Assembly: GCA_964544545.1 (NCBI GenBank)
Contig: CAZJCG010000015.1
Coordinates: forward strand, 6,735-70,734
Direction of reading: 5' to 3'
DNA: 64,000 bases
Source: an uncultured Lentimicrobiaceae bacterium
GTDB taxonomy: Bacteria > Bacteroidota > Bacteroidia > Bacteroidales > UBA4417
Position numbers and translations under genes: made by a program. Positions 1 through 55,378 of the stretch are shown here, one piece after another. Position 1 is the first letter of the stretch. The number at the start of each line of letters is the position of its first letter. The notes under the pieces are model-generated. The model saw nothing but the letters and a program-made list of their open reading frames with translations. It had not been told where the DNA came from and did no database searches.

Positions 1-1409
1 TAATAGTTTCCGCCGGCAGGAGCATCGATATAAAAAGCAGGTGTTTTCTGTTTCTTGATCGTTGCAACAGCATTCACTGCCTCATCTTTTGAAATGAAGG
101 CATCGCACAGATTGCAGGCAGCAAATTCAGCCGGTAAAGTTCCCAGTTGTAATGCGGCAACAGCTCCTTCGCGGTAGCCGGTTATCGTCCGGAAACGGTA
201 ACCTTTCCTGGCCCGGTATATGCGCTCCACAGTCCTTATCTCACTCCTCAGGGCAGCAGTATCTTCGCCAGGAAGAAATGCGAGGATCACAGGGAGCAGC
301 ATATTGCATTCCGTTTCTTTTGCTACTGCATCTGCGATATCTGACTGCAGGGAACGATCCCGGATCCCGGCAAAATACATTACCGGAAATCGCCGGTCGG
401 TTGAGGAGTATCCTTCAGGCAGAAAAACCTGTATGCCTTCCGGTTCCTCACCTGACAAGCTTTTCGCATTACAGTTGCGAGTACCGGCTTCATCGGAAGC
501 CGTATCACCCCTGTATGGAACCGAGCTGAAGGCATCGCTCATGAAGCGCAGCGCGTTGGGAAGGGCCGATGTCCAGTATTGGAAGCTGTGTCCGCCGTCC
601 CTGACCCTGAATTCATGATGAATGTTCAGGTTGCGCATCAGGATGTGAAGTTCTTCATTGCTGCGGCAGAGCGTCTGCTCATCATCGCCGTTGTCAATAT
701 AGATCCGGAGATTACTGATTCGGGCTGCCGGCATATCTTTGAGCAGGTGAAACGGGCTGTGGGAACGGTAATACGGGGTAATCCTTTCTTCTCCTGTCTT
801 CCCTTCAGCACCGAAGATACTGCCCCATTGCTTATCCCATCCGGAGGCTTCTTCTGTCATATATTGCTCATCAGTCCTCACCGAAATGCTGAGTGGAACG
901 GTTGCCCCAAACACGTCGGGATGCTGCAGGGCAAGCATGAGAGCTCCGTAACCACCCATGGAGTACCCGATGAGGGCACGCTGGTCGTTACGGGGAATTG
1001 TCCGGAAAATACGATCGATATAGGGTACCAATTCCTGAATAAACATATCCTGGTATCGGCAGGAGTCATGATAGTCGTTCATGTAATAGGTCCTGAAACC
1101 CTGAGGCATCACGAATATCATCGGAACTATCTCGCTTCGGGCTGTTGCCGCGTATGCATATTGACTGATCTGACCGTATTCGAGCCAGGAGCTTTCGTCA
1201 TCGCCCAGACCGTGCAGCATGTATACCACCGGATAGGATGAACTGCTTGTATAGTAATCCTGTGGCAGGCAAACGGAGAAACGGATATCCTGTTGCAGTA
1301 TCCGGCTGTGCATCACCATTCCTTCCCGGATCAGCAGGCCGTTGCCTGCCCCGGCAAAGTTTGCTGCAAGCAGGCATATCATTAAGAAGGTCACCGTTTT
1401 CCTGATCAT
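1..1409 (-). CDS. Tandem-domain putative esterase (CE1/esterase-D-like alpha/beta hydrolase); 3' end lies outside the window
   Basis: My own reverse translation from ATG at 1409-1407 gives MIRKTVTFLMICLLAANFAG (signal peptide), then YPVVYMLHGLGDDESSW and a nucleophile elbow GYSMGGYGAL. The frame appears open to position 1, which explains its absence from the complete-ORF track. The + strand ORFs at 152-1241 are its shadows. The start overlaps the upstream stop (ATGA at 1406-1409). Confidence 0.8.
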   Translation of the reverse strand, partial: MIRKTVTFLMICLLAANFAGAGNGLLIREGMVMHSRILQQDIRFSVCLPQDYYTSSSSYPVVYMLHGLGDDESSWLEYGQISQYAYAATARSEIVPMIFVMPQGFRTYYMNDYHDSCRYQDMFIQELVPYIDRIFRTIPRNDQRALIGYSMGGYGALMLALQHPDVFGATVPLSISVRTDEQYMTEEASGWDKQWGSIFGAEGKTGEERITPYYRSHSPFHLLKDMPAARISNLRIYIDNGDDEQTLCRSNEELHILMRNLNIHHEFRVRDGGHSFQYWTSALPNALRFMSDAFSSVPYRGDTASDEAGTRNCNAKSLSGEEPEGIQVFLPEGYSSTDRRFPVMYFAGIRDRSLQSDIADAVAKETECNMLLPVILAFLPGEDTAALRSEIRTVERIYRARKGYRFRTITGYREGAVAALQLGTLPAEFAACNLCDAFISKDEAVNAVATIKKQKTPAFYIDAPAGGNY

Positions 1410-3038: not shown

Positions 3039-4610
3039 CTATTTTACATTTCCGGGGTTGAGCATCGGGGCCGGCTTATCGCCGTAAACCACGTACGACT
3101 TCAGATAGATCCTGAAATCCGGATCAGGGTTCACCCATTTGATCTCCAGTTTATGGGCCCCGTTCGGCAGCATGTATTTATAATAGATGTCGTATTTACG
3201 AACGATATAATCGAAGGGCATCCTGACCTGTTCCGTCTTTTTACCATCGATATACACATCGAGCAGAGCGACAAAATCGCTTCCCGACAGGTCGCAGCGG
3301 CTTCTGACATTCCCCAGCACCACAATGCCGTTTCCGGTGAAATCGATTTTGATGCTTTCATCCAGGAAATCTTTCCGTACAAGTAATTCCTTAACGGGAT
3401 ACATCCCTTCGAAGGATTGTTCCAGCCGCAGCACTTCAGGTTGCTGCACTTTGATAGTGACCTGACCGTTTTTGATCTCACCGCCATTGCCGGTAATAAG
3501 CTGCGTTGCATGTTTATAGCTCAGGTCGTACACCTGGTTCAGGGTCATATCGGTATAGGGGAATTTCAGGTCCTGAACCTTTTCGATGGCCGGTTTCCAG
3601 AAGGCCGGGATCTTGTCGTAGCCAAGCACGACACCCAATATGCCGGCAGCAGTTGCCGGATTGCAGTCTGAATCCTGTCCGCAACGCGTGGCAATGTCCA
3701 TGGTCCTGTAAAAGTCTTTTTCTCCATAGAGGAGCCCCATAACGACATAGGCTGCATTCACGCTGGCATCTATGTTAAAGGCGTTGAACACCCCTTCGGG
3801 GCAGCCCTTCTCGGAAGTATGTTTCTTTTCAAATTCGAACCAGCATTGTTTCCAGTCGTTGGGATACTTTTTATGCCATTTCAGTACGTCGTCGATAGCC
3901 TGATAGAATTTGCTTTGCTGCGGAACGGGCTTCAGTCCCTCCCTGACGATGAATTCAATATCATCCGAAATAAAAGCGGTACTGTACATTCCGGCCATGA
4001 AAACGCCGCCGTACCATCCATCGCCATAGTTCATGATATGTCCGGTCCGGTCACAGATCTCCGCTGCCGAGTTAATCATTCCGGGCGCCATCATTCCGGC
4101 GAAATCGGCTTCAATCTGGAAATCGATATCATCAGCATGGGGATTGTTCATCCAGTAGCCTGAAGCAGGAGGCATGATGCCGTTAAGGATATTGTAACGG
4201 GCGGCCTGGTTGGCATGCCAGAGCTTATAATCATCATGGGCAAAGGAGAGAGCGAATGAATCGGCAGGAGCATGGATACCCAGGCGTTCGATCACCTCCA
4301 CAAAGGTCAGGTCCATGTAAACATCGTCGTATAAACCGGGATCGGATTCGAAGATCTCTTTAATATAATCATCATACCACACCATAGGCTGATAATCCTG
4401 GATCATAGTCCCTTTGAACCGGAATTCCGTAGGTCCGCCAAATGTGCAACCAATAGTCTGCCCTGCCCATCCACCTTTGATCTTGTCCTTCAGGACCTCC
4501 ACAGGGATCGTTACCCTTTCGGGCAGACTGCCGGTTTTATGCCCTTTCTCCCTGCAGGAGGTGATGAGCAGTGCCGGCAGTATAAACAGGACTATCCATG
4601 CACGTTTCAT
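3039..4610 (-). CDS. Exported ADP-ribosylglycohydrolase (ARH)-fold protein with C-terminal beta-sandwich module, lipoprotein
   Basis: 523 aa. Lipobox LLITSC. ARH-family-like acidic clusters PGLYDDVYMDLTF and CGQDSDCNPATAAGILGV (compare the canonical GGDTDTnAAIaG). About 130 aa C-terminal extension. The start overlaps the upstream stop (ATGA 4607-4610). Confidence 0.8.
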   Translation of the reverse strand: MKRAWIVLFILPALLITSCREKGHKTGSLPERVTIPVEVLKDKIKGGWAGQTIGCTFGGPTEFRFKGTMIQDYQPMVWYDDYIKEIFESDPGLYDDVYMDLTFVEVIERLGIHAPADSFALSFAHDDYKLWHANQAARYNILNGIMPPASGYWMNNPHADDIDFQIEADFAGMMAPGMINSAAEICDRTGHIMNYGDGWYGGVFMAGMYSTAFISDDIEFIVREGLKPVPQQSKFYQAIDDVLKWHKKYPNDWKQCWFEFEKKHTSEKGCPEGVFNAFNIDASVNAAYVVMGLLYGEKDFYRTMDIATRCGQDSDCNPATAAGILGVVLGYDKIPAFWKPAIEKVQDLKFPYTDMTLNQVYDLSYKHATQLITGNGGEIKNGQVTIKVQQPEVLRLEQSFEGMYPVKELLVRKDFLDESIKIDFTGNGIVVLGNVRSRCDLSGSDFVALLDVYIDGKKTEQVRMPFDYIVRKYDIYYKYMLPNGAHKLEIKWVNPDPDFRIYLKSYVVYGDKPAPMLNPGNVK

Positions 4611-6253
4611 GGTCTTTCAGGATTAGGTAAATTGCTTTCAGGCTGCTTTTCCGAGTACACAACTATGTCGTTGATCCGGATTTCGTATCCGGGCGCAGGA
4701 TTTCGCCATTTGAGCGTCACATTGTGCTTTCCTTCTGTCAGTTGATATTTCCATGCAGGCTCAAGCCGCCTCGAAGTGTTTTTCATGGGCAGTTTTACCA
4801 GTCCGTCCGGCTTACCGTCAATTGTCACCTCCACTTCTGCCACGTAAGGATCATCCGGTTCGGCAAGCGCCATGGCTTCCGATCCGGCACGTTTGGCTAT
4901 CCGGTCGATATAGCTCTTATCGATCTTTGCATTCTTCACCAGGTTCCCGTAAAAGATAAAACCATTCCCCTGGAAGTCGTAAGAGAGTTCATCGGTGAAT
5001 GATTTATCGAACCTGTCGCGGTAAACGGGAAAGGTATTCTCAAAGTTCTGTTCGAAAGCTACCGGAGCGATCTTTTTGACAGGGATAACGATCGTATCTC
5101 CATCCGTTTTTCCTCCGGCTTTCGTGATCATTTCGAGGGCATGCCTGAGGCTGATATCATAAACTTTCTGAAGCGACATGGATGTTCCTTCGAAGGTCAT
5201 GGGCTCTATTTCCTGAAGAGGCTCCAGCCAGAAGGCCGGGATGTGGGAATACCCAAGTATCACCCCCAGAACACCGCCAACCGTAGAAGCATTGCAGTCG
5301 GAATCCTGCCCGCAGCGCGTTGCAATGTCAACCGACCGCGTAAAATCACCCTTCCCGTAAAGCAATGCCAGTGCCACATAAGCCGAGTTGATCTTTGCAT
5401 CGATGTTGAATGACAGGAAGACGCCCTTGGGGCATCCTACATCCCTGTCCCATTTCTTCTGGAGTTCAAACCAGGCTGATTTCCAGTCATCCGGGTACTG
5501 CTTATAGAAACTCAACACATCACTGATGCAATCATGGAATTTCGTTTTTGCCGGTATCACCGACAAGGCTCCGCTGACAAGTTTTTCAGGATCGCTGGTG
5601 GTAAAAGCCTGGGAATAGAGACTTGAAACAAAAACACCTCCGTACCATCCGTCGCCGCTGTTCATGATATGCCCCACACGGTCGGCGATTTCAGCCGCTT
5701 CATTCGGAAGCCCCGGTGACATGATACCGATAAAATCCGATTCGATCTGGAAGTCCAGGTCATCCGCATGGGGATTGTTCTTCCAGTTTCCCGATGCAGG
5801 GGGCATGATTCCCTGCAGGATATTGTACCGGGAAGCCTGGTTAGCATGGGCAAGGTGATATTCGGCTCCGGCCCAGCAGGTAGCAATCGTATCCCTGGAG
5901 ACATCGAGGCCATATTTTTCAAACATGCTCACGAAGTTCAGGTCTGTATAAATATCATCGAAAAGACCGGGTTTTTTATCCCACCAGTATTTCACATAAT
6001 GCCGGTTCCAGGGGATGATCTGCCAGTCGTTGATGAGAGCTCCCTGATACTTGAATTCAACCGGGGCTCCGTATACCACACCGATCGTCTGGCCGGCCCA
6101 TCCCCCTTTGATCTTATCGGCCAGCACCGTTTTCGGAATGCTGAATGATTCCTTGTCTTTCCCATCGGTTGCAGACTGGCGGCAGCTGACGCCTGCCAGC
6201 ATCAGTGCCAGCAAGGCGGGAATAAGGATATGGTTCAGGTTGAGCTTGAGCAT
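4607..6253 (-). CDS. Exported ARH-fold protein, paralogue of 3039-4610, lipoprotein
   Basis: 548 aa. Lipobox MLAGVSC. Same architecture, and collinear by eye with the neighbouring protein (KGGWAGQTIG, PGLFDDIYTDLNF, CGQDSDCNASTVGGVLGV). Confidence 0.8.
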   Translation of the reverse strand: MLKLNLNHILIPALLALMLAGVSCRQSATDGKDKESFSIPKTVLADKIKGGWAGQTIGVVYGAPVEFKYQGALINDWQIIPWNRHYVKYWWDKKPGLFDDIYTDLNFVSMFEKYGLDVSRDTIATCWAGAEYHLAHANQASRYNILQGIMPPASGNWKNNPHADDLDFQIESDFIGIMSPGLPNEAAEIADRVGHIMNSGDGWYGGVFVSSLYSQAFTTSDPEKLVSGALSVIPAKTKFHDCISDVLSFYKQYPDDWKSAWFELQKKWDRDVGCPKGVFLSFNIDAKINSAYVALALLYGKGDFTRSVDIATRCGQDSDCNASTVGGVLGVILGYSHIPAFWLEPLQEIEPMTFEGTSMSLQKVYDISLRHALEMITKAGGKTDGDTIVIPVKKIAPVAFEQNFENTFPVYRDRFDKSFTDELSYDFQGNGFIFYGNLVKNAKIDKSYIDRIAKRAGSEAMALAEPDDPYVAEVEVTIDGKPDGLVKLPMKNTSRRLEPAWKYQLTEGKHNVTLKWRNPAPGYEIRINDIVVYSEKQPESNLPNPERP

Positions 6254-6263
6254 GGCTGATGAG

Positions 6264-8252
6264 TTAGTGATACACCGACAATTCTGTTACCGACGTAAAT
6301 CCCGATACATTCTTTGTATACTTGTTCCAGTGATCCTGGACCTTGGCATCTCCGATTACCCGGATAGCCGTGGTGGTAACGGTCGGGAAACTGATGACAT
6401 ACTCCACAAAATGGGGCTGATAAAATACTATATCGGTTGCCGGTAACGGAGGATCAATCTGCGAACCGCACACCGGCACCCATTTGCCTTCATTGTTCAG
6501 GTATTGTACCTCGAGAGAGGTGAACCAGCCGCCGAATTCTTCCAGACAGCCGGTATGCAATGCCAGCATGCTGATTTGCTGCGGTGTCTTCCAGGAATAA
6601 CCGTAATAGTCGACCTTGGGCAGCTTTGATTTGGCGGCAAGGCTGTAAAATACCGAGCCGGGGCCGTCAACGATCCCGTCGTTCAGCACATCTACACTCC
6701 TGGCATACATGGATTTCCCGAAAGTATACCAGCAGGAATCGAGAACGCTCTCGTTGAGGATTCTCACATTGGCGATGACAGAATCGGCCGTGGGAGCAAT
6801 ATTGGGTTTACGCACAAGCAGATGGAACTGCTTTGTCCGCGTTTCGGTTCCGTTGCCAACCTGCAAAGTAATGTCATAATAGCCTGGTTTTCCCGGAATA
6901 CCTGTGAGCCTGCCCTTATCGAATTTCAGTCCTTCAGGGAGATTTCCCGAAACAAGGCTCCAGTCGTAAATCCGTGTTGCCTGTGTATAGAAGTTGAAGT
7001 CAACCGGTTTGCCGACTTCGAGGTGAGGCAACGGCCCGACTGCAAACTCCAGGGGCGGATTGAACAACGCATCCGTCTTGATGTAAAGCACCTGATTGCC
7101 GGGCTTGCCGGTCAGTTTGCCACCTTTCAGGAGGATGGTCTTGATGGCTGCATCCAGGGTCTTATCAATGATGGAAGAGATATCTGCATCAGGCAGATCG
7201 TAACGGGTAATGTTGATATATCTGTTATTGAAAGGTTGTGTCCATCCTTCCACCGGAAGGTAGAGGTTTGCCGGAAGGCCTTTCATACCGTTGATCACGC
7301 CGAGCAGTCCGGCAACCGTGGCAGCCTGGTTATCGGCATCAAAGCCCATGGCGCACGCCAGGTCGAGGGTACGCTGGAAATCGCCGTTACCATATAACAT
7401 TGCCAGGATGGCGCAGGCGCCGTTCAGGTTTGCGTTCCAGATAGTCCGTGTCATGTCCGGCTCTTTGACATAATATTTATCAGCCATCTCCTGCCGGGCG
7501 GCTTTCCAGTCGGAAGGATATTTGGCATGCAGGGCGATCATATCCCTTACAGTGCCGGCATAGCGGCTGTCGGGCGGAAGCTGCTGAAGTCCGATCTGGA
7601 TAAGCTTGCGGATATCTTTCTCGAAAAATGCGGCAGCATACATGGCACCATAATGTACGGTCGGCTCGGCGCCCCAGCTGTCGCTGGTGATGCGGGCAAC
7701 CCAATCGGACTTTGAAGCAGCATATTTCACCATCCCGGGAGCCGTTACAGCCCACACTTCATTGATCAGCTGCGGGTCGATCTGATACCAGTGCGGATTC
7801 AGGTTTTTATCACCGGTAAAAGGCGGCGTATACCCGAAATGCATCAGGCCGAGAGCTCCTCTGTTGGCAAGCCACACGCGGTCGCGGATATGATACATCC
7901 AGGCATCCCGGAGGTTGGCATAACTGGGTTCGGGACCATATTTCTCCATCTGAAGGACATACATGTATTCCACATCCGTATCGTCATCGGAGAAGGCGCC
8001 GCCGTATTTCTTCAGCTTTTCCAGGTTCTTGGTGTAGCCATACGGCCAGTTTTCGGGCCCCGGCATCTGTACATACTTGTTCTCATGAGGCAGCCCATAG
8101 ATATTCCCGATCATCTGTCCGACCCATTCGGCAGCGATCTTGTCCCGAAGTTCCGACACAGTGATCTTCCGGTAATTGCTTCCGGCAGCTGTATTGATCA
8201 TCAGTCCGGCCAGGAAGATCAGTAGCGTCAATCCACGATCTGCTCTTTTCAT
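6264..8252 (-). CDS. Exported ARH-fold protein fused to Ig-like and discoidin/F5-8-type-C-like modules
   Basis: 662 aa with a signal peptide. Acidic clusters GAFSDDDTDVEYMY and GFDADNQAATVAGLLGV. Then an Ig-like segment (LPEGLKFDKGRLTGIPGKPGYYDITLQV) and a ~170 aa C-terminal beta-sandwich. Confidence 0.8.
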   Translation of the reverse strand: MKRADRGLTLLIFLAGLMINTAAGSNYRKITVSELRDKIAAEWVGQMIGNIYGLPHENKYVQMPGPENWPYGYTKNLEKLKKYGGAFSDDDTDVEYMYVLQMEKYGPEPSYANLRDAWMYHIRDRVWLANRGALGLMHFGYTPPFTGDKNLNPHWYQIDPQLINEVWAVTAPGMVKYAASKSDWVARITSDSWGAEPTVHYGAMYAAAFFEKDIRKLIQIGLQQLPPDSRYAGTVRDMIALHAKYPSDWKAARQEMADKYYVKEPDMTRTIWNANLNGACAILAMLYGNGDFQRTLDLACAMGFDADNQAATVAGLLGVINGMKGLPANLYLPVEGWTQPFNNRYINITRYDLPDADISSIIDKTLDAAIKTILLKGGKLTGKPGNQVLYIKTDALFNPPLEFAVGPLPHLEVGKPVDFNFYTQATRIYDWSLVSGNLPEGLKFDKGRLTGIPGKPGYYDITLQVGNGTETRTKQFHLLVRKPNIAPTADSVIANVRILNESVLDSCWYTFGKSMYARSVDVLNDGIVDGPGSVFYSLAAKSKLPKVDYYGYSWKTPQQISMLALHTGCLEEFGGWFTSLEVQYLNNEGKWVPVCGSQIDPPLPATDIVFYQPHFVEYVISFPTVTTTAIRVIGDAKVQDHWNKYTKNVSGFTSVTELSVYH

Positions 8253-8261
8253 ATTGTTTTA

Positions 8262-9788
8262 TTACAATGGGTTTTGAACCAGGTTTTTATTGGCATTCAG
8301 CACCGACTGAGGTATCGGGAAAAGCTTGGCATTGTTGCCCGACGGGGGTTTATTCCACCAGGCATTCCCCCAGGCGCCAAATCGAATCATATCCTGGCGG
8401 CGATGCCCTTCCCAGGCAAATTCGCGACCCAGCTCATCCAGAAATGCCGCGTTGGTCAGGTCGCTCACCGTGAGAGGTTCCAGCCCTGCACGGGTGCGTA
8501 TCTTCTGCAGGTCGGGATCGTTGATCATCTCCCCTGCCCTGCCAAGCCTCCACAAGGCTTCGAGCTTAGTGTAGAGGACGTCAGCATAGCGGAACAATAC
8601 AAAATCATTTTCCATGTCGGTGACGTAATACTCCAGCCCATCCTGGTATTCATATTTACAGCACCTTGCGCCTTCCCATTTCTTGCGGGCCATATAGTTC
8701 TCGATGGTGGAGGTGTAGATGAACGGCTCGTATTCATTGGTGCTTGCATTCAGGATGTAGATGTCATTTCCGTTCTTATCCTTCTGCTGTCCGCAAAGAA
8801 ACGAATTACGGCGCTTATCATTCCCCTGGTACTTTTCATAGAAATTCGGTTCAAGAACAAACTCATCCCACATGCCTCCCTTGAAATTAAAGGTCGCCCG
8901 GCTTGCATCGTTCAGCGTAAGCGTGTACCAATAGAAACGGTCCTTGGTATAAACCGCATCCATAGGGATTACAAAGATATTCTCCGTTGAGGATTCATTG
9001 TAAACTTTAAAATTGGCGAAATAGTCATTCTCGATCGAATAGCTGTTCAGGCCGATCACCTTGTTACAGGCATCAACGGCCTCCTGGTACATGTTCTGGC
9101 CGATCCATTCCTCAGCATTCAGGTACAGCTTGGCAAGCAGCGTATACGCCACCCCCTGTGTCACCCTGCCATAATAGGCGGTAGTGGGAACATCCTGCAA
9201 CTTATCGACATTGCCAAGTATCTCATCCTTAATGTATTGAAATACAAACTGTCGGTCCTTTTGTACAGGGAGATTCTTGTCGGTATAATCAATTGAGAAG
9301 GGAATGTTACCCCAGTTGTCGAGGGCCAGGTAATAGAAGTAAGCCCTGAGGATCTTTATTTCCGAGACCACCCGTTCTTTATCCGGGAAAGTGATCGGCG
9401 ACATCTCCGTTTCATAAATTACCTCGTTGCAGGCGCTGATACCTTCAAAAACATTGTTCCAGGCATAGGTAAGGATCTTGTTCGTGGGCGATACCTGGTG
9501 TTTCTGGATCTCATTCCAGCGACCGTTATCCCAGACAAATCCATCATCGCGGGCCGGCGCCACCATTTCGTCCGAAGCAAGTTCATCCAGCGTCCAGAGA
9601 CTGAATTCTTCGGGGTACCGCTGGAGTTTGGTATAGGCTCTTCCGGCATTCATCAGAACATCTTTCTCGGTATGGAAGAAATTATCAAGCGGGATGTCGG
9701 AATACACTGTTTCATCCAGTTTGGTGCAGGAGACAAATCCTGTAATAAAAACTGCGACAGTAAGGTAGGTAAATATCCTGGTTTTCAT
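8262..9788 (-). CDS. susD: RagB/SusD family nutrient-binding outer membrane lipoprotein
   Basis: 508 aa. Lipobox GFVSC. SusD-like helical N-terminus and typical C-terminal segment (EFAWEGHRRQDMIRFG). Located directly downstream of SusC. Confidence 0.9.
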   Translation of the reverse strand: MKTRIFTYLTVAVFITGFVSCTKLDETVYSDIPLDNFFHTEKDVLMNAGRAYTKLQRYPEEFSLWTLDELASDEMVAPARDDGFVWDNGRWNEIQKHQVSPTNKILTYAWNNVFEGISACNEVIYETEMSPITFPDKERVVSEIKILRAYFYYLALDNWGNIPFSIDYTDKNLPVQKDRQFVFQYIKDEILGNVDKLQDVPTTAYYGRVTQGVAYTLLAKLYLNAEEWIGQNMYQEAVDACNKVIGLNSYSIENDYFANFKVYNESSTENIFVIPMDAVYTKDRFYWYTLTLNDASRATFNFKGGMWDEFVLEPNFYEKYQGNDKRRNSFLCGQQKDKNGNDIYILNASTNEYEPFIYTSTIENYMARKKWEGARCCKYEYQDGLEYYVTDMENDFVLFRYADVLYTKLEALWRLGRAGEMINDPDLQKIRTRAGLEPLTVSDLTNAAFLDELGREFAWEGHRRQDMIRFGAWGNAWWNKPPSGNNAKLFPIPQSVLNANKNLVQNPL

Positions 9789-9807: not shown

Positions 9808-12759
9808 TTAAAATGAAGCGTTCACGCCAAACACGAGGGTTGTGGTGCGGGGGTAATAGTACTGGTATTCAATTCCCGGTGACAAACCGCTCATACTCAC
9901 CTCAGGATCCAGCCCTTTGTAATGAGTCAGGCAGAAAACATCCTGTGCCGTTATGCTTAACGTCAACTTAGAGATATGCCTTGTGACCTCATGAAAATTA
10001 TAGGCCAGCGACAGGTTGTCGAGCTTTACAAAGGAAGCATCTTCGATGTACTTGGATGAATACTGGCCGGTACCGATGAATTCAGGATTTTCGAGCTGGG
10101 AGTAAACGATGTTCCTGCCCAGGCTTAGCCAGTTCTCATAATAAAGCCGGTACATGTTAAGTACATCCCCGCCGATCTGACCCCTGAGAGAAAAATTCAG
10201 GGTGAACTGCTTATAGTTGAGGGTATTGCTGAATCCCAGCTTACAAAACGGCATTGCGTTGCCGATGGCCTCCCACTTATCCGGACTGACATGTCCGACA
10301 GGATCCTGGTTTTTAAATTTATCAAATCCGTATTGATCCACTTCCAGCCAGGCCGGGCCATAGAATGTTCCGATTGCCTTGCCTTCCTCCAGACGCTGGC
10401 AGTTCAGCGGGAATGAGCCTCCCAGCCAACCGATCTCGATATACTTGTTAGTGAATTCAGAGTTTGAAAACTTGACCAGCTTGTTGATGTTCCTGTCGAA
10501 AGTGAGGTTAGCCGACCACTCAAATTCAGAGGTTTTCACCGGGATGAAGCCCAGAGTCAGTTCAACGCCATGGTTGCTAACGGTTCCCACGTTTGTATAG
10601 AGCTGATTGGTGAGATAAGGCGGAACTGATACCGTGTAGGTATATAGCAGATCGGTGCTCCACCGGTAGTAATAATCGAGAGCGCCGCTGATACGTCCGT
10701 TCAGGAAGGCGAAATCAATACCGGTATTGAACTCTTGTTTCTTCTCCCATCTCAGGTCCGGATTTGGATTAGAAATGGGCTGATAGGTGTTGATCCATTC
10801 GCCGTTATACAAGAACTTCCCGGCTTTGCCCATGAGGGTCAACGATTTGTAATTGTCAAAGTCCTGATTTCCGGTTACGCCGTATCCAACCCTTAGTTTC
10901 AGATCGCTGATCCACTTCACATCCTTCATAAACGATTCCTGATTGATCCTCCATCCAAGGCTGGCTGCAGGGAACCATCCCCATTTATGGTTGGCGCCGA
11001 AACGCGAAGAGCCTTCCCTTCGCAGCGACATCGATAGAAGGTAACGTTCCTTGTAGTTGTACATTACCCGCCCGAAGAATGAGATAAGCCTGCTCTGGCC
11101 TTTGTATGAGCCCATCTCAGCAGTGCCTTCTCCCAGGGCTGTGCCCGCACCGATATTGTTGACCCCGTAAAGGTCACTGTCAAAACCAGAGTTGATCAGA
11201 TAAGAATCATTCGACTCCAGTTGCTGGAACGTGTACCCTCCCAGCACCTGCAGGTTGTGATCACCAAATGAATTGGTGTAATTGACCATGCTTTCCAACT
11301 GTTTGTCAACGCTTCTTCCATTGTCAATCTCGGCAACCCCGCCACGGCCGATCCTGCTGGGATAGTATTTCGTCCAGTATGAGGACTCCTCCCAGTCGGA
11401 AAGGTTGTAAGTGGCCGTCGTCGTCCAGTTCAGTGTTTTGTGAAGTTGCAACTGGACGCGCACATTCCCTTCGGCATCGTTTGATTTGCCTTCGCGGAAC
11501 CTTTCATTCAGCATGGCAACCGGATTGTTGTAATCCACTCCTTCCAGATAAGTATATCCTCCCGAATAGGTATTGGTCGGATCATACACCGGGCTCGTCG
11601 GATTACGGACAAAAGCCTGATAGAACACATCGTAATTGGCCGGTTTATAGAACCTCGTTCCATACAACAGGTTATAATCGATGGTCATCAGATCGCCCAG
11701 TGCCTTTTGCTTGATATTCGTCTTGATGATATATTTTTTGGATTCATTATTCTTCAACAGACCATTCGACTGATCTACAAAAAAGGATGAACGGTGCGAA
11801 AACCTGTCGGTACCGCCGGTGAGCGAGATATTATGTTGCTGGCTGACCGGATTCTTCCGTGTGACCTCGTCAAACCAGTTCACATCATCGCCATAGAGGT
11901 TGCCGCTCTTTTCGGGGGCATACGTCTCAATCGCATATTTGAATTCATCGGCAGTGAGGTTGCGTACCGAACGCGGATTTACCTGCATGGAAACCCTGCC
12001 GGTGTATTCTATCTTGCTGTCGCCGGCTTTTGCCCTCTTGGTGGTAATGATGATCACACCGTTCGAACCCCGGGTTCCATAGATAGCAGCTGCCGAACCG
12101 TCCTTGAGCACATCGACTGATTCAACCTCCTCGGGACTGATGTTCTTTAGGTCCACGCCCGTAACACCGTCTACAATCACCAAAGGCCCCTGACCGGATG
12201 TGAGGGTATTGGTCCCGCGGAGGATAATGTTAAAGCCCGCCTGAGGATCTGCCCCGTCCGGTTTCACGATGCTAAGCCCTGCAACCTTGCCCTGCAGAAG
12301 AGCAATGGGGTTATTATACGTGCCCCTGGAGAAATCATCTTCCTTAAGTGTCGTGATTGATCCAGTGATCTCCTTTTTTGTGGTGATGCCGTACCCGATC
12401 ACAACCAGTTCATCGAGCGACGTCACCGTCACTTTGAGTTTCACGTTAACAACACTCTGATTGCCAACCGGTATCTCCTGCTTTTCATATCCTACCATCG
12501 TAAAGACCAGCGTTGCGCCCTGAGGGGCATTCAGGGTGTACTTGCCATCAAGGTCAGTGATCGTTCCGGTTTGAGTCCCTTTAATGACGACATTCACTCC
12601 GGGCATGCTCTGGTTGTCGGCTACATCCGTAACCTTTCCTGAGACTATTCTTGTGGCTCCCTCCTGGGCTGAAACGGTATGCGAAAGCATCACCAAAACG
12701 AGCAGGAAGGTGTATATGCCACCATGCCTGAACAAGTTGATTATTTTACTTGTCTTCAT
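9808..12759 (-). CDS. susC: SusC/RagA family TonB-dependent outer membrane transporter
   Basis: 983 aa. Signal peptide, carboxypeptidase-regulatory-like domain (GKVTDVADNQSMPGVNVVIKGTQTGTITDLDGKY), TonB box region DELVVIGYG, plug and barrel, terminal F. Confidence 0.95.
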   Translation of the reverse strand: MKTSKIINLFRHGGIYTFLLVLVMLSHTVSAQEGATRIVSGKVTDVADNQSMPGVNVVIKGTQTGTITDLDGKYTLNAPQGATLVFTMVGYEKQEIPVGNQSVVNVKLKVTVTSLDELVVIGYGITTKKEITGSITTLKEDDFSRGTYNNPIALLQGKVAGLSIVKPDGADPQAGFNIILRGTNTLTSGQGPLVIVDGVTGVDLKNISPEEVESVDVLKDGSAAAIYGTRGSNGVIIITTKRAKAGDSKIEYTGRVSMQVNPRSVRNLTADEFKYAIETYAPEKSGNLYGDDVNWFDEVTRKNPVSQQHNISLTGGTDRFSHRSSFFVDQSNGLLKNNESKKYIIKTNIKQKALGDLMTIDYNLLYGTRFYKPANYDVFYQAFVRNPTSPVYDPTNTYSGGYTYLEGVDYNNPVAMLNERFREGKSNDAEGNVRVQLQLHKTLNWTTTATYNLSDWEESSYWTKYYPSRIGRGGVAEIDNGRSVDKQLESMVNYTNSFGDHNLQVLGGYTFQQLESNDSYLINSGFDSDLYGVNNIGAGTALGEGTAEMGSYKGQSRLISFFGRVMYNYKERYLLSMSLRREGSSRFGANHKWGWFPAASLGWRINQESFMKDVKWISDLKLRVGYGVTGNQDFDNYKSLTLMGKAGKFLYNGEWINTYQPISNPNPDLRWEKKQEFNTGIDFAFLNGRISGALDYYYRWSTDLLYTYTVSVPPYLTNQLYTNVGTVSNHGVELTLGFIPVKTSEFEWSANLTFDRNINKLVKFSNSEFTNKYIEIGWLGGSFPLNCQRLEEGKAIGTFYGPAWLEVDQYGFDKFKNQDPVGHVSPDKWEAIGNAMPFCKLGFSNTLNYKQFTLNFSLRGQIGGDVLNMYRLYYENWLSLGRNIVYSQLENPEFIGTGQYSSKYIEDASFVKLDNLSLAYNFHEVTRHISKLTLSITAQDVFCLTHYKGLDPEVSMSGLSPGIEYQYYYPRTTTLVFGVNASF

Positions 12760-13697
12760 ATCTTATAGTTTTGCGATTCTGCATCCAGCGTAGCCAACTC
12801 TGATCTGTAGGGGATTGACCCCTGGGCGCCCATGCGGGTAACGGTGAGAGCGGCGGTTTTGGCGGCCATCTTCACCGAATCAAGTATAGATAATCCTTCG
12901 GAAAGACCGACACACAGCGAACCGCAAAATGCATCGCCGGCGGCAGTAGTATCCACAGTGTTTACCTGATATGCATTAACGAACTGATAAAGATCGTGTT
13001 CTTTGATCAATGCGCCCTGCGATCCAAGGGTGATTACCACGATATCTACTCCTTTTGCGCTGATGATGTCGGCAGCACGCTTAGCCGACTCAACGTCGGT
13101 CACTTTGATTCCTGAAAGTATTTCCGCTTCTGTCTTGTTCGGAATAATAATATAGGTGTTGCTGAGTAGTTTTTCCGACAGCGCTCTGGCCGGTGCAGGG
13201 TTCAGGATTACTTTTACCCCTTTACTGTTGGCCATCTCGGCTGCATATTCAACCGTTTCAACCGGTATTTCAAGCTGCATCAGGAGGATATCGCTTGTTT
13301 CAATCTCGCCGCGGGCTTTGTCGATATCAGCCGGACTTAAAGAAGCATTTGCCCCCGAAGCCACCACAATACAATTCTCTCCGTTCGAATCAACAGTTAT
13401 CAATGCTACTCCGGAGGGCTGCTTAGGATCAGAGAAAACATAATCGGTCTTTATGTTCTCGGCATTGTATAACATTACCGACTGCTTCCCGAACACATCG
13501 TTACCGGTCTTCGAAACGAATGTCACATTCCCTCCCATGCGTGCAGCAGTCACAGCCTGGTTTGCTCCTTTTCCACCCGGGTTCATCATAAAGGTACCTC
13601 CCAGGATTGTTTCACCGGGAACCGGAAGACGATCGGCTTTTATCACCATGTCGGTGTTACAACTCCCTACAACAACAATTTTTTTCGCTTGATTCAT
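12756..13697 (-). CDS. rbsK: Ribokinase (PfkB family)
   Basis: KIVVVGSCNTDMV, NPGGKGANQAV and C-terminal DTTAAGDAFCGSL motifs. The longest ORF runs to 13802. I prefer ATG 13697 (MNQAKKIVVVGS) because the upstream residues are not ribokinase-like and a TAnnTTTG box sits at 13717-13724. The stop overlaps the SusC start (ATGA). Confidence 0.85.
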   Translation of the reverse strand: MNQAKKIVVVGSCNTDMVIKADRLPVPGETILGGTFMMNPGGKGANQAVTAARMGGNVTFVSKTGNDVFGKQSVMLYNAENIKTDYVFSDPKQPSGVALITVDSNGENCIVVASGANASLSPADIDKARGEIETSDILLMQLEIPVETVEYAAEMANSKGVKVILNPAPARALSEKLLSNTYIIIPNKTEAEILSGIKVTDVESAKRAADIISAKGVDIVVITLGSQGALIKEHDLYQFVNAYQVNTVDTTAAGDAFCGSLCVGLSEGLSILDSVKMAAKTAALTVTRMGAQGSIPYRSELATLDAESQNYKI

Positions 13698-13716
13698 ATA
13701 GTTGAAATTTGACATA

Positions 13717-13724
13717 CAAATATA
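13717..13724 (-). promoter_or_regulatory. Candidate Bacteroidota -7 promoter box (TATATTTG on the minus strand) for the ribokinase-SusCD operon
   Basis: The + strand reads CAAATATA, which is TAtaTTTG on the minus strand. This is an exact match to the TAnnTTTG consensus, ~20 nt upstream of ATG 13697. Motif match only. Confidence 0.3.
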
Positions 13725-13830
13725 TTCACGGCTTCCGGTAAAGAATTTCAAAAATTTTAACTGTTTTGTATCCCTGAACATACAATCTTGTAATAAATTC
13801 ATTCTATTTATCTGATATTCTGATTTTTTA

Positions 13831-13838
13831 TAATTTTG
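13831..13838 (+). promoter_or_regulatory. Candidate -7 box (TAATTTTG) for the divergent gene 13894-15429
   Basis: Matches TAnnTTTG in the AT-rich divergent intergenic region, ~55 nt upstream of the ATG. Motif match only. Confidence 0.25.
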
Positions 13839-13893
13839 AAATTACAACAATTTTATAATTCTGAATTAACAAACTCCCAATTCCCGGCTCATC

Positions 13894-15429
13894 ATGACCC
13901 AGGTCCATTCACTCATTCATCTCATCCATTCGATGAGTGCTGTAGAAAAGAAAGCTTTCAGCAGCCATGCACGGTTCGACAACAGATGCCCCAACTACCT
14001 TACCCTGTACACCATCATTGCCAGGAATGGAACTATTTCCGATGCCGAACTCAAAGAGGCCTTTTTAAAAGCCTGTCCGGGAGCATCACTCGAAACATCT
14101 GCCAAATACCTGTTCTATAGATTGCTTGACACTATCCAGGCCTTACGGAAGACTCAGGATAGTTTTTTCAGCCTGTTCGACACGATTATGAAAGCAAGGA
14201 TTCTCTTCGAGATGTCGCTGTTCGATGAATGTTTCGATCTGCTGCACGAAGTGATGGAGCAGGCCCGGAAGAATGAGAATTACTATGCGTTGCTGCTGGC
14301 ATCCCGCCTCGAGTTGGAATACCTGCTGGCTGTCAACTTCCCGGGAATGAGTGAAAAGTCGCTGTTGCAAAAGCAGTTCCAGCTCACCGAGGCCCTGAAA
14401 TTTCTCAGACGGATCAATGAACAGTCGTCGCTCTATGAAATACTGAAATACAGGGTGCTGTACAAAGGGCATACACGCTCACAACAGCAAAAGAATGAAC
14501 TGAACGACCTCGTATTCAGTGAGCTTAGCCTGGTTGCCTCACAGAACATGGAGAATTTTGAGATCAATAAGCTGCACCAGCTCTTCCAGTCGGTCTACCT
14601 GATCAGCGTCGGCGACTACAAATCGGCCCAGCATTCGTTTTATGAACTCAACACCCTCTTTGAGTCGAACCGGCATTTGTGGAGTGACCCTCCCATCTAT
14701 TATCTCAACATGCTCGAAGGGGTTCTCGAAAGCCTGAGAAGCATTCATGACTATGAAGGGATGGGCTATTTCCTGGATCAGTTGAAGAAGATCGAAAGCA
14801 GTTCGACGGACTTCAGGATCAACCTGGTAAGCATAACATTCCAATACGAGCTTTTTCCCTTACTCGACACAGGCGACTTTGTTGCCTGCCGCACGCTTAT
14901 CGACCAGTATAAATTTAAACTATACGAGAAATCGGGTAACCTGAACCGGGTGCGACAGGCCGAGCTATATCTGTACACCTCCATTGTTTACCTGGGTTCC
15001 GGGGAGTACCACAAAGCACTCAAGGCCCTTAATCAAATCTACCTCAGGATCAAGAACATCACCTTCCTGCCTCTGCACCGCACCATCCGCCTGATCAACC
15101 TGGTGATCCTTTATCACTTGGATGAAACAGAACTGATCAAGAATGAAATCCGGTCGCTGAAACGGGATATGAGCAGCAACGATAAAGGCTACAGGATTGA
15201 ACGGTTCCTGTTCGGCTTTCTGAACAAGCATCAAAGCCATCTGACGGCCGGAAGACCCCGGGAATGGGAAAAAGTCGGGATTGCAATCGACGATATCCGC
15301 CAGGATCCTTTCGAACAACAAATCCTGAGAATATTTGATTTCACTGCCTGGATCGAATCACAATACCGGCTCATTCCGCTGAGCGATGTCCTGAAACAGA
15401 AAACTGCAAAAAGCAGTGCCCGGTCTTAA
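13894..15429 (+). CDS. Conserved hypothetical all-alpha (TPR-like) protein
   Basis: 511 aa with no signal peptide or TM segment. The N-terminus LIHLIHSMSAVEKKAFSSHARF...NYLTLYTII resembles a hypothetical family I recall as widespread in Bacteroidota. No catalytic motif recognised. Confidence 0.6.
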   Translation: MTQVHSLIHLIHSMSAVEKKAFSSHARFDNRCPNYLTLYTIIARNGTISDAELKEAFLKACPGASLETSAKYLFYRLLDTIQALRKTQDSFFSLFDTIMKARILFEMSLFDECFDLLHEVMEQARKNENYYALLLASRLELEYLLAVNFPGMSEKSLLQKQFQLTEALKFLRRINEQSSLYEILKYRVLYKGHTRSQQQKNELNDLVFSELSLVASQNMENFEINKLHQLFQSVYLISVGDYKSAQHSFYELNTLFESNRHLWSDPPIYYLNMLEGVLESLRSIHDYEGMGYFLDQLKKIESSSTDFRINLVSITFQYELFPLLDTGDFVACRTLIDQYKFKLYEKSGNLNRVRQAELYLYTSIVYLGSGEYHKALKALNQIYLRIKNITFLPLHRTIRLINLVILYHLDETELIKNEIRSLKRDMSSNDKGYRIERFLFGFLNKHQSHLTAGRPREWEKVGIAIDDIRQDPFEQQILRIFDFTAWIESQYRLIPLSDVLKQKTAKSSARS

Positions 15430-15792
15430 ATACTTCCGTGAACAGATCATCCTGAGGCACCCTGTGTATCTCTGCTTTTTGGACCGGATCTGACAGCTAA
15501 TCCATGGTTAATCCGGGATATATCAGCCGGGTACCCGTATATTCTGAATGCAGACACTGACCGGACTTCCCGGGTAGGTACATTCTGAAGAATAATACTA
15601 ATGCGTTGTCCAATACAAGCACTAATTTTAAATTGCAGCTTCCCGGCCTGCATTATTAATACTACATTCGTTGGGGAATTCCACTCATGTCCTGTTTCCG
15701 GAACTACTGTCCATACGGGAACAGGGGCGTCTAAGTATACTTACCGAAGCACCCTTCTGAATCTTAATCCGAAACAGATAAACAATCCTCTC

Positions 15793-16596
15793 ATGATATT
15801 GGACGAAACATACTCTTTATTGAGGACCAGATACAAGGAACAAGCCGGTAAACTTACCATTACAGCCGTCCGGATAGGAGTACATCTCACTGCCGTAAAA
15901 CTCTCCGACGAAAGCGTCGGTTTTGCCGGTACTTTGTCGGATAACTGTCTGCCGGGTATTAGAAAAGACCGGGATTATGGAGACTTCACCCCTGCACAGA
16001 TCCAGGGGAAGAAGATCACAGATCTGTTCGACACCCCGAAAAGATCCAGTATCATCGACACCCTCCGGATAGCGGTAATGAATGCCATTTCATCCGGGAT
16101 CCTTTCTTCAGGAGGATATAAAATCATTGAAGACAAGGACCCAATCGAGCTGGTTGATCTGACACCTCCCAAGACTATCACTATTGTCGGCGCCTTTCAA
16201 TCTTATATCCATACAATTTCCGATACCGGTAACCGGCTGCATGTGCTGGAGTTTGATGAAAATACCCTTTATGCTGAGCATCGAAAGCATTTTGTTCCGG
16301 CTTCGCAATACCGGGAGGTGATACCTTCGTCGGATATCGTGATCATAACCGGATTAACGCTGGTGAACAACACCATCGACGGCTTGTTATCCGCTATCTC
16401 TCCGGGCACCACACTGATAGTGACCGGCCCGTCCAGCAGCCTTATTCCCGATGTGTTATTCCGGAACCATGTAAATATCGTAGGAGCTACCCGCATAACG
16501 AATCCCGACCTCCTGTTTGATATCGTGAGCGAATCAGGAGCTGGATATCACCTGTTTAAGTATTGTGCCCGGAAAATCTGCATCCTGAATGAATAA
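15793..16596 (+). CDS. DUF4213/DUF364-like Rossmann-fold protein ('putative heavy-metal chelation' family)
   Basis: MILDETYSLLRTRYKEQAGKLTITAVRIGVHLTAVKLSDESVGFAG, followed by a Rossmann-like half (ITIVGAF...IVITGLTLVNNTIDGLL). The track ORF starts at 15601, but the first 64 codons look non-coding, so ATG 15793 is preferred. Confidence 0.6.
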   Translation: MILDETYSLLRTRYKEQAGKLTITAVRIGVHLTAVKLSDESVGFAGTLSDNCLPGIRKDRDYGDFTPAQIQGKKITDLFDTPKRSSIIDTLRIAVMNAISSGILSSGGYKIIEDKDPIELVDLTPPKTITIVGAFQSYIHTISDTGNRLHVLEFDENTLYAEHRKHFVPASQYREVIPSSDIVIITGLTLVNNTIDGLLSAISPGTTLIVTGPSSSLIPDVLFRNHVNIVGATRITNPDLLFDIVSESGAGYHLFKYCARKICILNE

Positions 16597-16807
16597 GGAA
16601 CAAAGGCCTGCCGTTAAAATACTGAATGATGTTTCATCCGGACAAGCCAGCTTAATACCAGTCGACCCTGCATAAGGGAGGGTACGGCATCCTATGCAGG
16701 TCCGCCGGTAATCCTTTCGCCCGGAGAGCGCCCTGGTGAATGAATATAGTCCAGGTTCAGGCTGTATGCGACGATTTTATAATTTCGGGTCCTCAACCAG
16801 CCCCGGA

Positions 16808-17920
16808 ATGTCGATACAAGAAAAAGTAACCATTATCACCTCATCCGTTGAGGCCGGCACCCTCGAAACACTACCGGTAATTCCTGAGATGGAGCTGATC
16901 CCGCATGAGGAGTTGTTCAGATCCGGAAGAGTGTTTGAACCGGAAGAGAAGATATGCATCACATCGGAGTATTCACTTTCGACAGTGGTCAACTGCCTGG
17001 ATCCTTCCAGGAAAAAAGCCGTGAAAGTACTCAAAGACAAGTTTCTGTTCAGGAATATCCTGAAAGAGATTTACCCGGAATATTTCTTCCGGTCAATAAA
17101 GCCCGAAGAGATCAGCACATTGAAAATTGACCGGAAGTCTGTTCTTAAACCTTCGAGAGGGATTTTCGGAACAGCCGTGAGGATTGTTGATCCGGATACC
17201 GATTTCCATACGCTGGGCAGAGAACTGAACGATGAGTTAAGGAAAAATGCCCGGGTTTACCCCGATTCCGTTCTTTCCCCTGCTGACTTTATCCTGGAGG
17301 ACTTCATCGATGGAGAAGAGTACGCGGTGGATATGTTTTACGATTCTGTTGGCAATCCCAACATCGTAAATATCTATCACCACCCCATACCTCAAAATAA
17401 GGCCTACCTCCACATGCTGTATAACTCCTCCAAAGCATCCTTTGAGGCAGTTTATGACAAGTCCATGCGGTTTTTTTCAGAGTTGAACCGCTTGCTGGAT
17501 GTCACTAATTTCGCAATGCATGCCGAATTCAAAGTCTGGCAGGGCCGACTCTTCCCGGTGGAGATCAACTGCATGCGCTTCGGCGGAATGGGACTCTGCA
17601 ACCTGTTGTATTATTCACTCGGGATCAATCCATTCCTTTGCTTTTTGCAGGATCAGGCACCTGACTGGAAATCGATCTGGAAAGAGAAGGGAGACAAGAT
17701 ATATTCCTTTTTTATCGCCTATAATGGAGCCGGGATTGAGGTAACCAAGGCAAGACCGCTCCCTGAAAAGTTGAAAAACCAATTTACCCAGGTGCTTCAT
17801 GAACATCTTTTCGATTATCGCAGACAACTGGCATTTGGAATTTATTTTCTGGAAGAAAGTGAAGAAAATATCCGCAAGTTGCTGAATCTGGAATTTGATC
17901 AATTCTTCGAGGCTTCATGA
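16808..17920 (+). CDS. ATP-grasp domain protein
   Basis: SVLKPSRGIFGTAVRIV...FILEDFIDGEEYAVDMFYDSVGNPNIV...FPVEINCMRFGG is typical ATP-grasp core spacing. Start uncertain: GTG 16736 or ATG 16808. Confidence 0.6.
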   Translation: MSIQEKVTIITSSVEAGTLETLPVIPEMELIPHEELFRSGRVFEPEEKICITSEYSLSTVVNCLDPSRKKAVKVLKDKFLFRNILKEIYPEYFFRSIKPEEISTLKIDRKSVLKPSRGIFGTAVRIVDPDTDFHTLGRELNDELRKNARVYPDSVLSPADFILEDFIDGEEYAVDMFYDSVGNPNIVNIYHHPIPQNKAYLHMLYNSSKASFEAVYDKSMRFFSELNRLLDVTNFAMHAEFKVWQGRLFPVEINCMRFGGMGLCNLLYYSLGINPFLCFLQDQAPDWKSIWKEKGDKIYSFFIAYNGAGIEVTKARPLPEKLKNQFTQVLHEHLFDYRRQLAFGIYFLEESEENIRKLLNLEFDQFFEAS

Positions 17921-17957
17921 GCCGGCTTCCCCTACGGATAAACAAACGAAAGACCTG

Positions 17958-18708: not shown

Positions 18709-18792
18709 GCCCCGGTGGCGGAATAGGTAGACGCGTCGGTCTCAAAAACCGATGGACGTGAGTCCGTGCCGGTTCGATTCCGGCCCGGGGTA
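18709..18792 (+). tRNA. tRNA-Leu (anticodon CAA), type II with long variable arm
   Basis: Manual cloverleaf. Acceptor GCCCCGG/CCGGGGT (G1-U72). Anticodon stem TCGGT/ACCGA with loop CTCAAAA. Variable arm TGGACGTGAGTCCGTG. T arm GCCGG-TTCGATT-CCGGC. Discriminator A. CCA is not encoded. Confidence 0.9.
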
Positions 18793-50519: not shown

Positions 50520-50527
50520 ATCAGGAC

Positions 50528-55315: not shown

Positions 55316-55378
55316 TTTGCATACTCCTTTCAAATGGTTAATAATCTAAATTTGCAATCCGAAAAAAATGTGAATTAT

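Follow-up and report, generated by a model that had tools for sequence, protein, structure and literature searches.

Three adjacent genes at positions 3039–8252 of a 64,000-nucleotide (nt) stretch of DNA from an uncultured Lentimicrobiaceae bacterium (contig CAZJCG010000015.1; the whole stretch is called the window, and coordinates count from its first letter, position 1) encode proteins with the ARH (ADP-ribosyl hydrolase) fold and with export signals. We call these proteins ARH-A, ARH-B and ARH-C. By sequence, fold and catalytic motifs they belong to the ARH superfamily and they lie outside the ARH1, ARH3 and DraG classes. Their genes are the enzyme block of a polysaccharide utilization locus (PUL) of the ribose utilization system (Rus), a context that was missed by the first-pass annotation of this DNA. 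We consider it probable, at roughly 0.6, that ARH-A, ARH-B and ARH-C are periplasmic metal-dependent hydrolases of ribosyl linkages that feed ribose to a permease and a kinase. This reading rests on a conserved pentad of site residues, the export signals and tight linkage to genes for a ribose permease and a ribokinase. Nearly all that is known of the ARH fold concerns intracellular erasers of ADP-ribosylation, whereas here a subfamily is exported, carries modules in the style of carbohydrate-active enzymes and is tied into ribose uptake and phosphorylation. The three genes and their domains are as follows.

3039–4610, minus strand: ARH-A, 523 amino acids (aa), PF03747; lipoprotein signal at aa 1–19 (nt 4554–4610)
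3603–4475, minus strand: ARH catalytic domain of ARH-A, aa 46–336
~3075–3413, minus strand: C-terminal beta-sandwich of ARH-A, aa ~400–512
4607–6253, minus strand: ARH-B, 548 aa; lipoprotein signal MLAGVSC; C-terminal beta-sandwich of the same type as that of ARH-A, plus an extra insert
5234–6106, minus strand: ARH domain of ARH-B, aa 50–340
6264–8252, minus strand: ARH-C, 662 aa; signal peptide without Cys
7269–8126, minus strand: ARH domain of ARH-C, aa 43–328
6816–7022, minus strand: He_PIG immunoglobulin (Ig)-like domain of ARH-C, aa 411–479 (Pfam)
~6267–6800, minus strand: CBM32/discoidin-like domain of ARH-C, aa ~485–662 (Foldseek; faint F5_F8_type_C match)

Fold and divergence of the ARH proteins

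The first-pass annotation had placed three paralogous ARH-fold enzymes at these positions, and a full-length ARH domain was found in each. PF03747 matched end to end with E values of 5e-38 (ARH-A, 131.8 bits), 6e-37 (ARH-B, 128.3 bits) and 4e-28 (ARH-C, 99.4 bits) against a cutoff of 26.2 bits, and the matches covered profile positions 1–286 (ARH-A and ARH-B) or 3–286 (ARH-C) out of 287. AlphaFold2 models of ARH-A and ARH-C had a mean predicted local distance difference test (pLDDT) score of 78 and 73, respectively. In agreement with the annotated fold, the models matched DraG, ARH3, ARH1, Tri1 and the Thermus (TTHA) ARH-related protein with a Foldseek probability of 1.00 and a target template modelling (TM) score of 0.5–0.66.

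A divergent subfamily had also been proposed, and this is what we observed. Identity to DraG, ARH3 and ARH1 in the Foldseek alignments was 12–14%, and phmmer searches of the PDB with the single sequences of ARH-A and ARH-C matched no chain. Profile matches to canonical ARHs were limited to the N-terminal and DxD motifs. The glycine-rich motifs GQTIGC, GQTIGV and GQMIGN are present as the annotation wrote them, and the motifs of the canonical classes (GDALG-type at the N-terminus and GxGNGxxMR) are replaced. The homologues did not turn out to be a well-characterized enzyme class, an outcome that the annotation had considered. The three paralogues have themselves diverged, with 48% identity between ARH-A and ARH-B and 27% between ARH-A and ARH-C. 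Each has its own orthologues at 52–83% identity across classes of Bacteroidota, which indicates that the triplication is old.

Catalytic site, appended modules and export signals

Characterized ARHs bind, at their metal centre, the cis 2'',3''-hydroxyls of the ribose whose 1'' bond they cleave, and the glutamate of the Glu-flap is essential (PMC7050489). The candidate site residues in ARH-A are E62, D95/D96 and D313/D315, with equivalents in ARH-B and ARH-C. The acidic clusters that had been noted for a binuclear metal site are there as quoted: YDDVYMD, FDDIYTD and SDDDTD, together with GQDSDCN (in two of the proteins) and GFDADNQ. In profile searches, the N-terminal motif GGWAGQTIGCTFGGPTEF aligned with GAFLGLAVGDALGATVEF of DraG and with a stretch of MJ1187, and E62 aligned with the Glu of the 'GxPxE' motif in DraG, Tri1 and MJ1187. 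The DD motif (glyDDly) was matched to GEWTDDTE of MJ1187, with Y94-D95-D96 of ARH-A opposite T-D-D, and the DxD motif (RCGQDSDCN) to LGGDTDT of ARH3, with D313/D315 opposite ARH3 D314/D316. In these alignments E62 is the counterpart of the Glu-flap glutamate in canonical ARHs, and D95/D96 and D313/D315 are the counterparts of their carboxylate metal ligands. All three proteins keep the metal and catalytic motifs (Glu, DD and DxD), and the loss of metal ligands that the annotation had allowed for was seen in none of them. Two other alignments were set aside. When the subfamily profile was compared by hhalign with ARH3, given alone or in an alignment of 18 sequences, the match reached no farther than the C-terminal DxD region. 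A forced global hhalign was rejected because it put the DD motif opposite a WYDD that is not conserved.

The same residues are conserved across the subfamily. When 150 cluster representatives were aligned to the subfamily model, 112 covered all five positions and the E-DD-DxD pentad was intact in 104 of these. Most of the remaining eight miss several pentad residues together, the pattern expected if these residues form one functional site, and many further polar residues are conserved across the subfamily. The hydroxyl ligands are changed: Thr is replaced by Tyr (Tyr94) before DD in ARH-A and ARH-B, and the residue after DxD is Cys (Cys316) in ARH-A and ARH-B and Asn in ARH-C.

Two further features of this region were observed. 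Among the deviating representatives (P0263, P0276, P0284 and others), most are without the catalytic Glu and also without one or both metal motifs, with GQNTKGN, CPGSNAH or GQASATN in place of GQDSDCN; in this minority the ARH fold may have given rise to pseudo-enzymes or to binding proteins. The second feature is a set of Cys residues conserved in the subfamily (C310, C316, C270 and C55 of ARH-A), two of which, C310 and C316, flank the DxD motif. C310 is present in 84 of the 112 representatives and C316 in 104, and canonical ARHs have Thr or Ser at the C316 position. These Cys residues could reflect a different metal preference or a periplasmic disulfide.

The annotation had described C-terminal extensions with carbohydrate-binding-like modules. 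These extensions do exist: residues ~404–510 form an all-beta domain in the AlphaFold2 model of ARH-A, and Pfam places He_PIG at 411–479 of ARH-C. The proposed nature of the modules was supported for ARH-C, where the tail matched the Ig-linker plus CBM32 tandem of a Micromonospora sialidase (Foldseek E 3e-7), and also BT0459, several CBM32 modules and factor V/VIII C domains, with the CBM32-type matches at E 3e-7 to 1e-3. F5_F8_type_C (PF00754) reached E 0.063 at the C-terminus of ARH-C, with 13.8 bits against a cutoff of 28.2, and pLDDT was below 50 at residues 496–547. For the ~130-aa beta-sandwich of ARH-A and ARH-B the carbohydrate-binding assignment is tentative. The ARH-A domain gave weak Foldseek matches (E 5e-3 to 2e-2) to the N-terminal beta-sandwich of CE2 esterases, to CBM36 and to a CBM35-like domain, and the isolated C-terminal domains of ARH-A and ARH-B had no match in Pfam.

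Relatives of these proteins are modular as well. In an alignment-based scan of 50 long representatives, 25 carry PKD_4. A Pfam scan of 57 long representatives found fusions to a PF00756 esterase domain (three proteins), F5/8 type C (four), Laminin_G_3 (four) and GH43 (two), and single fusions to GH92, GH106, GH26, GH32N, a GH84-like NAGidase, a GDSL lipase, an endonuclease/exonuclease/phosphatase domain and choline-binding repeats. Type IX sorting domains are on two of the 57. This modularity is in the style of extracytoplasmic carbohydrate-active enzymes, and the fusions of ARH and esterase domains tie together the two activities encoded in the locus.

All three proteins begin with an export signal, and the two lipoboxes reported for them, LLITSC and MLAGVSC, are present. 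By our own heuristic, which was used here in place of SignalP or LipoP, a lipobox Cys follows a hydrophobic stretch in 98 of 119 A-type homologues, a lipobox is present in 28 of 35 B-type orthologues, and the hydrophobic signal peptide lacks a Cys in 116 of 120 C-type homologues. The concern that the signal peptides might be start-codon artefacts can be put aside, since orthologues keep the same signals and the ARH genes are tightly packed, with a 4-nt overlap or gaps of 9–10 nt, which leaves no room for other upstream starts.

The annotation had likened the architecture to that of surface enzymes, but the location signals do not support a surface position. Acidic residues after the lipidated Cys are the consensus for surface export of Bacteroidota lipoproteins, and none directly follow the Cys in ARH-A (CREKGH) or ARH-B (CRQSAT). 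Across 98 A-type orthologues, mainly G/N/S/K/R occupy positions +2 to +6 after the Cys. Pfam and further profile scans detected no type IX secretion C-terminal domain in the ARH proteins. Type IX secretion was therefore rejected for them, although the genome encodes CHU_C-tagged proteins. From the non-acidic residues after the lipobox Cys and the lack of a match to the type IX domain, we infer that a periplasmic location is at least as likely as a surface location.

CHU_C type IX sorting domains were found on two large proteins of the window (34747–37596, plus strand, and 52718–55333, minus strand); Big_9 accompanies them on one of the two proteins, Lamin-tail and Big_5 on the other. The organism therefore has a type IX secretion system, which the ARH proteins apparently do not use.

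The ribose utilization locus and its distribution

The ARH genes lie in an operon with ribose and glycan-uptake genes, in the order RusR (divergent), ribokinase, SusC, SusD, ARH-C, ARH-B, ARH-A and two esterases. The genes around the ARH block are listed below.

13894–15429, plus strand (divergent): BT2802-family ribose utilization protein (RusR-type regulator); NF058569, 618.9 bits against a cutoff of 550
12756–13802, minus strand: ribokinase (RusK equivalent), first gene of the operon; TIGR02152, 377.5 bits against a cutoff of 299.65; PfkB
9808–12759, minus strand: SusC-like TonB-dependent transporter (RusC equivalent); CarbopepD_reg_2, Plug, TonB_dep_Rec
8262–9788, minus strand: SusD-like lipoprotein (RusD equivalent); PF07980, PF14322
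1406–3031, minus strand: Est1, esterase of 541 aa; PF00756 'putative esterase' at aa 52–304, E 1e-30; lipoprotein-type signal FGASGC
1–1409, minus strand: Est2, second esterase, N-terminal ~469 aa only, as the gene crosses the window start; signal peptide without Cys

Because four of the defining genes are present (SusC, SusD, ribokinase and the BT2802-family gene), we assign the locus to the Rus family of PULs. The operon crosses the window start, and a RusT-type permease probably lies just beyond that edge; such a permease was seen in two syntenic contigs, a 99%-identical metagenomic contig (L002) and a 5.4-Mb chromosome-level metagenome assembly (L001; GCA_942493265.1). Both have the same gene order, and in both Est1 is followed by the complete second esterase (518 aa, PF00756) and then by a PF06800/PF07168 sugar permease.

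To see how general this linkage is, tblastn was run on the best 80 of at least 589 loci, and neighbours were counted in the 42 that had 8 kb or more of flanking sequence on each side. Within 10 kb of the A-type gene, a ribokinase was found at 36 of the 42 loci, a RusT-like permease at 37, and one or the other at 37. SusC/SusD (26/42) and esterases (24/42) were less regular companions. The full arrangement of ARH-C, ARH-B and ARH-A with SusCD and an esterase occurs at 23 loci from several classes of Bacteroidota, and 17 loci have a single A-type gene. Cultured bacteria that carry the full locus include Gelidibacter salicanalis PAMC21136 and Ferruginibacter sp. HRS2-29. At the small end is a minimal operon in Parabacteroides hominis (strain NSJ-79), made up of RusR (divergent), RusK, an A-type ARH, an IU-type nucleoside hydrolase and RusT.

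The subfamily is large. Searched with ARH-A, a representative library at 50% identity held 474 clusters at E <= 1e-30 and 3401 clusters at E <= 1e-3, and a pattern scan of species-representative genomes found at least 589 that encode relatives. The best 80 of these are all from Bacteroidota, among them Bacteroidales (Parabacteroides, Phocaeicola, Alistipes and Muribaculaceae), Marinilabiliales, Cytophagales, Chitinophagales, Flavobacteriales and Saprospiraceae.

Several features of the surrounding DNA were also observed. The ribokinase operon and the RusR-type gene start, in opposite directions, no more than 91 bp apart (13802–13894), and both promoters and any RusR operator must fall within this stretch. 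In Est1 and Est2 (~520–540 aa each) the recognizable esterase domain is confined to the N-terminal half. A feruloyl-esterase model matched Est1 partially and under cutoff. The rest of Est1 (aa ~311–541) had no Pfam match and resembles a second, degenerate alpha/beta-hydrolase repeat ('PLIIALHD' compared with 'PVVFLLHG'). Signal types are kept among orthologues, lipobox-type in Est1 (23 of 33 orthologues by the same heuristic) and signal-peptide-type in Est2. At 15856–18430 of L001, after the RusT-like permease, there is a 342-aa protein without a Pfam match and then an Na_sulph_symp/CitMHS-type transporter; these might belong to the same system and would then hint at an anionic part of the substrate. 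On the other side, adjoining RusR, genes at 15601–18566 (plus strand; annotation from L002) encode DUF4213/DUF364, ATP-grasp_4 and NTP_transf_3 proteins and are followed by a tRNA at 18709–18792; as far as we can tell, this cluster is unrelated to the PUL. Farther away, at 47994–51670 (plus strand), a gene whose 841-aa product has a central spermidine-synthase-like domain immediately precedes one for a radical SAM protein (380 aa), an unusual pairing.

Proposed function, alternatives and known systems

In the mechanism we favour, the SusD/SusC pair would capture and import a ribose-containing, probably acylated, glycan or glycoconjugate, and the two esterases would strip acyl groups from it in the periplasm. 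The three ARH paralogues, each with a predicted two-metal centre and a catalytic Glu, would then hydrolyse differing ribosyl (C1) linkages and free ribose, with ARH-A and ARH-B anchored by lipid and ARH-C soluble. ARH-C departs from ARH-A and ARH-B at many polar positions that the subfamily conserves, which suggests that it has a different specificity. Ribose would be taken in by the RusT-like permease and phosphorylated by the ribokinase before entering central metabolism, and the divergent RusR-type protein would control the operon.

Several points weigh against this mechanism. We could not name a widespread acylated ribose polymer that fits it. Ribofuranose in bacterial glycans is mostly beta-linked. 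Canonical ARH1 and ARH3 are selective for alpha-1'' linkages (PMC7050489). Fusions to GH92, GH43, GH106 and other such domains could mean that some members of the subfamily act on sugars other than ribose. Open-literature searches did not find a biochemical study of any member. The two-metal site in ARH-A, ARH-B and ARH-C is predicted from aligned motifs rather than from geometry, and pLDDT was below 50 in the active-site loops of the models (60–69 and 268–279 in ARH-A; 61–73 and 122–158 in ARH-C). Finally, the periplasmic placement depends on how the residues that follow the lipobox Cys are read, and that reading is crude.

Among alternatives, we think it unlikely that the proteins are genuine extracytoplasmic ADP-ribosyl hydrolases that salvage ribose from poly(ADP-ribose), ADP-ribosylated proteins, O-acetyl-ADP-ribose or debris derived from NAD. 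Membership of PF03747 and the retained metal and Glu site fit such a role, the esterases could de-acylate O-acyl-ADP-ribose, one representative of the subfamily is fused to an endonuclease/exonuclease/phosphatase domain, and Glowacki et al. group ADP-ribosylglycohydrolases (ADP-RGH) with 'nucleoside cleaving enzymes' (bioRxiv 10.1101/574913). The loop that would meet the rest of ADP-ribose argues otherwise. To map it, ARH-A and human ARH3 were cut at matching points and the Pfam profile coordinates were read, with an ambiguity of ~2 residues just upstream of the stretch; the ARH3 sequence used was verified by its retrieval of ARH3 orthologues at 99–100% identity. In this mapping ARH3 S148–R156 (SYGNGGAMR, profile 120–128), a loop that we take also to contact the diphosphate, lies opposite A159–E167 (ADDIDFQIE) of ARH-A, where D160, D161, D163, Q165, E167 and, just beyond, D169 are highly conserved in the subfamily. 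Tyr149 in the ARH3 loop is one of two residues that stack on adenine (PMC7050489). The profile mapping thus gave no match in ARH-A to the ARH3-like elements for binding adenosine and diphosphate. An acidic loop would be ill suited to a diphosphate, and no Nudix, pyrophosphatase or 5'-nucleotidase to take ADP-ribose to ribose is encoded in the locus as seen in L001 and L002. Both observations argue against ADP-ribose, and the fusions to glycoside hydrolase (GH) and carbohydrate-binding modules (CBMs) point to glycans instead. The loop argument is suggestive and not decisive, because adenosine binding differs greatly among canonical ARH classes (PMC7050489). On balance, the substrate is probably something other than ADP-ribose.

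It is quite improbable that the three proteins do not act on glycans and instead hydrolyse the N-ribosyl bonds of small ribosides outside the range of ordinary nucleoside hydrolases, such as alpha-linked or unusual-base ribosides. ARH1 and DraG do cleave the N-glycosidic ribosyl-arginine bond (PMC7050489), an A-type gene adjoins an IU-type nucleoside hydrolase in compact rus operons, and an obvious endo-acting surface enzyme is missing from the locus, as would suit a small substrate. The Ig plus CBM32-like tandem on ARH-C does not fit so small a substrate, and neither do the relatives fused to GH, CBM and PKD modules; three paralogues and two esterases suggest something more complex. Similarly doubtful is a general family of metal-dependent glycosidases that here cuts a sugar other than ribose, for example another cis-diol furanoside, with the link to ribose genes reflecting only a mixed substrate. 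Fusions to GH92 (mannosidase), GH106 (rhamnosidase), GH43, GH26 and the GH84-like domain could be read in this way, as could the differences of ARH-C at positions that the subfamily conserves. The ribokinase or ribose-type permease at most of the loci counted, including minimal operons with nothing else in them, speaks for ribose, and L001 and L002 have no catabolic genes for another sugar in the locus.

That the proteins are catalytically dead and serve the PUL as extra substrate-binding lipoproteins is scarcely credible: the changed hydroxyl ligands and the few representatives without the pentad would allow it, but Glu, DD and DxD are in all three proteins and nearly all representatives, and many other polar residues are conserved throughout the subfamily. 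A toxin-immunity (Tri1-like) or defence role was rejected on account of the export signals and the nutrient-uptake operon.

We return to ribosyl hydrolysis as the favoured function. A bolder form of it, which we put forward only tentatively and at less than even odds, is that these proteins represent an unrecognized metal-dependent family, like glycoside hydrolases but on the ARH fold, that releases ribofuranose from glycans or glycoconjugates, and that the PUL with three ARHs and two esterases targets an abundant acylated ribose polymer not recognized as a microbial nutrient. If the proteins are ribosyl-glycan hydrolases, a mechanistically distinct two-metal family would be added to the carbohydrate-active repertoire and the missing enzymes of many rus loci would be named. 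It would also help to find out what ribose-containing nutrient is harvested by Bacteroidota of gut, lake, soil and marine habitats, a question that the original Rus study left open (bioRxiv 10.1101/574913).

ADP-RGH genes have already been reported from rus loci, and our finding is thus not wholly new. The enzymes listed for rus loci are GHs, nucleoside hydrolases, ADP-RGH and carbohydrate esterases; ADP-RGH and esterases are among the variable enzymes of 70 rus configurations; and ribose induced eight tested loci, of other types than the one described here, by 100- to 1000-fold (Glowacki et al., bioRxiv 10.1101/574913). The portion of that text on which we draw does not give an activity for the ADP-RGH genes and does not describe the triple-ARH plus double-esterase configuration, its spread across classes, the export signals or the CBM fusions. 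Searches of the literature on 'ribofuranosidase', on ARH with carbohydrate-binding modules and on ARH with PULs returned only this preprint or irrelevant papers. As far as we found, what is apparently undescribed is a large, divergent, exported and modular ARH subfamily in which the canonical glycine-rich loop is replaced, the triple-ARH plus double-esterase PUL that recurs across Bacteroidota classes, and the biochemistry of any member.

As a comparison with known systems, ARH-A, ARH-B and ARH-C share with ARH3 (ADPRS/ADPRHL2), ARH1 and DraG the all-alpha fold, PF03747, a Glu in the N-terminal glycine-rich motif, and the DD and DxD motifs. They differ in having GQ(T/M)IG(C/V/N) in place of GDALG and, in ARH-A, the acidic HADDIDFQIE in place of the GSxGNGxxMR loop, and the hydroxyl metal ligands of canonical ARHs have become Tyr, Cys or Asn. 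Unlike ARH1, ARH3 and DraG, they are exported by a signal peptide or lipobox and carry a C-terminal beta-sandwich or Ig plus CBM32-like modules, and their genes are in a nutrient-uptake locus, whereas canonical ARHs occur in signalling or nitrogen-fixation contexts. The C-terminal tandem of ARH-C superposes on the Ig plus CBM32 tandem of the Micromonospora viridifaciens sialidase (1eut/2bzd), but the catalytic domain of the sialidase is a beta-propeller and that of ARH-C has the ARH fold. With the Rus prototype of Bacteroides thetaiotaomicron (BT2802-2809) the window locus has in common the divergent RusR-type gene, the ribokinase, SusC/SusD, variable enzymes and, to judge from the syntenic contigs, the RusT-type permease. 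The prototype has a GH and a nucleoside hydrolase where the window locus has its ARH genes.

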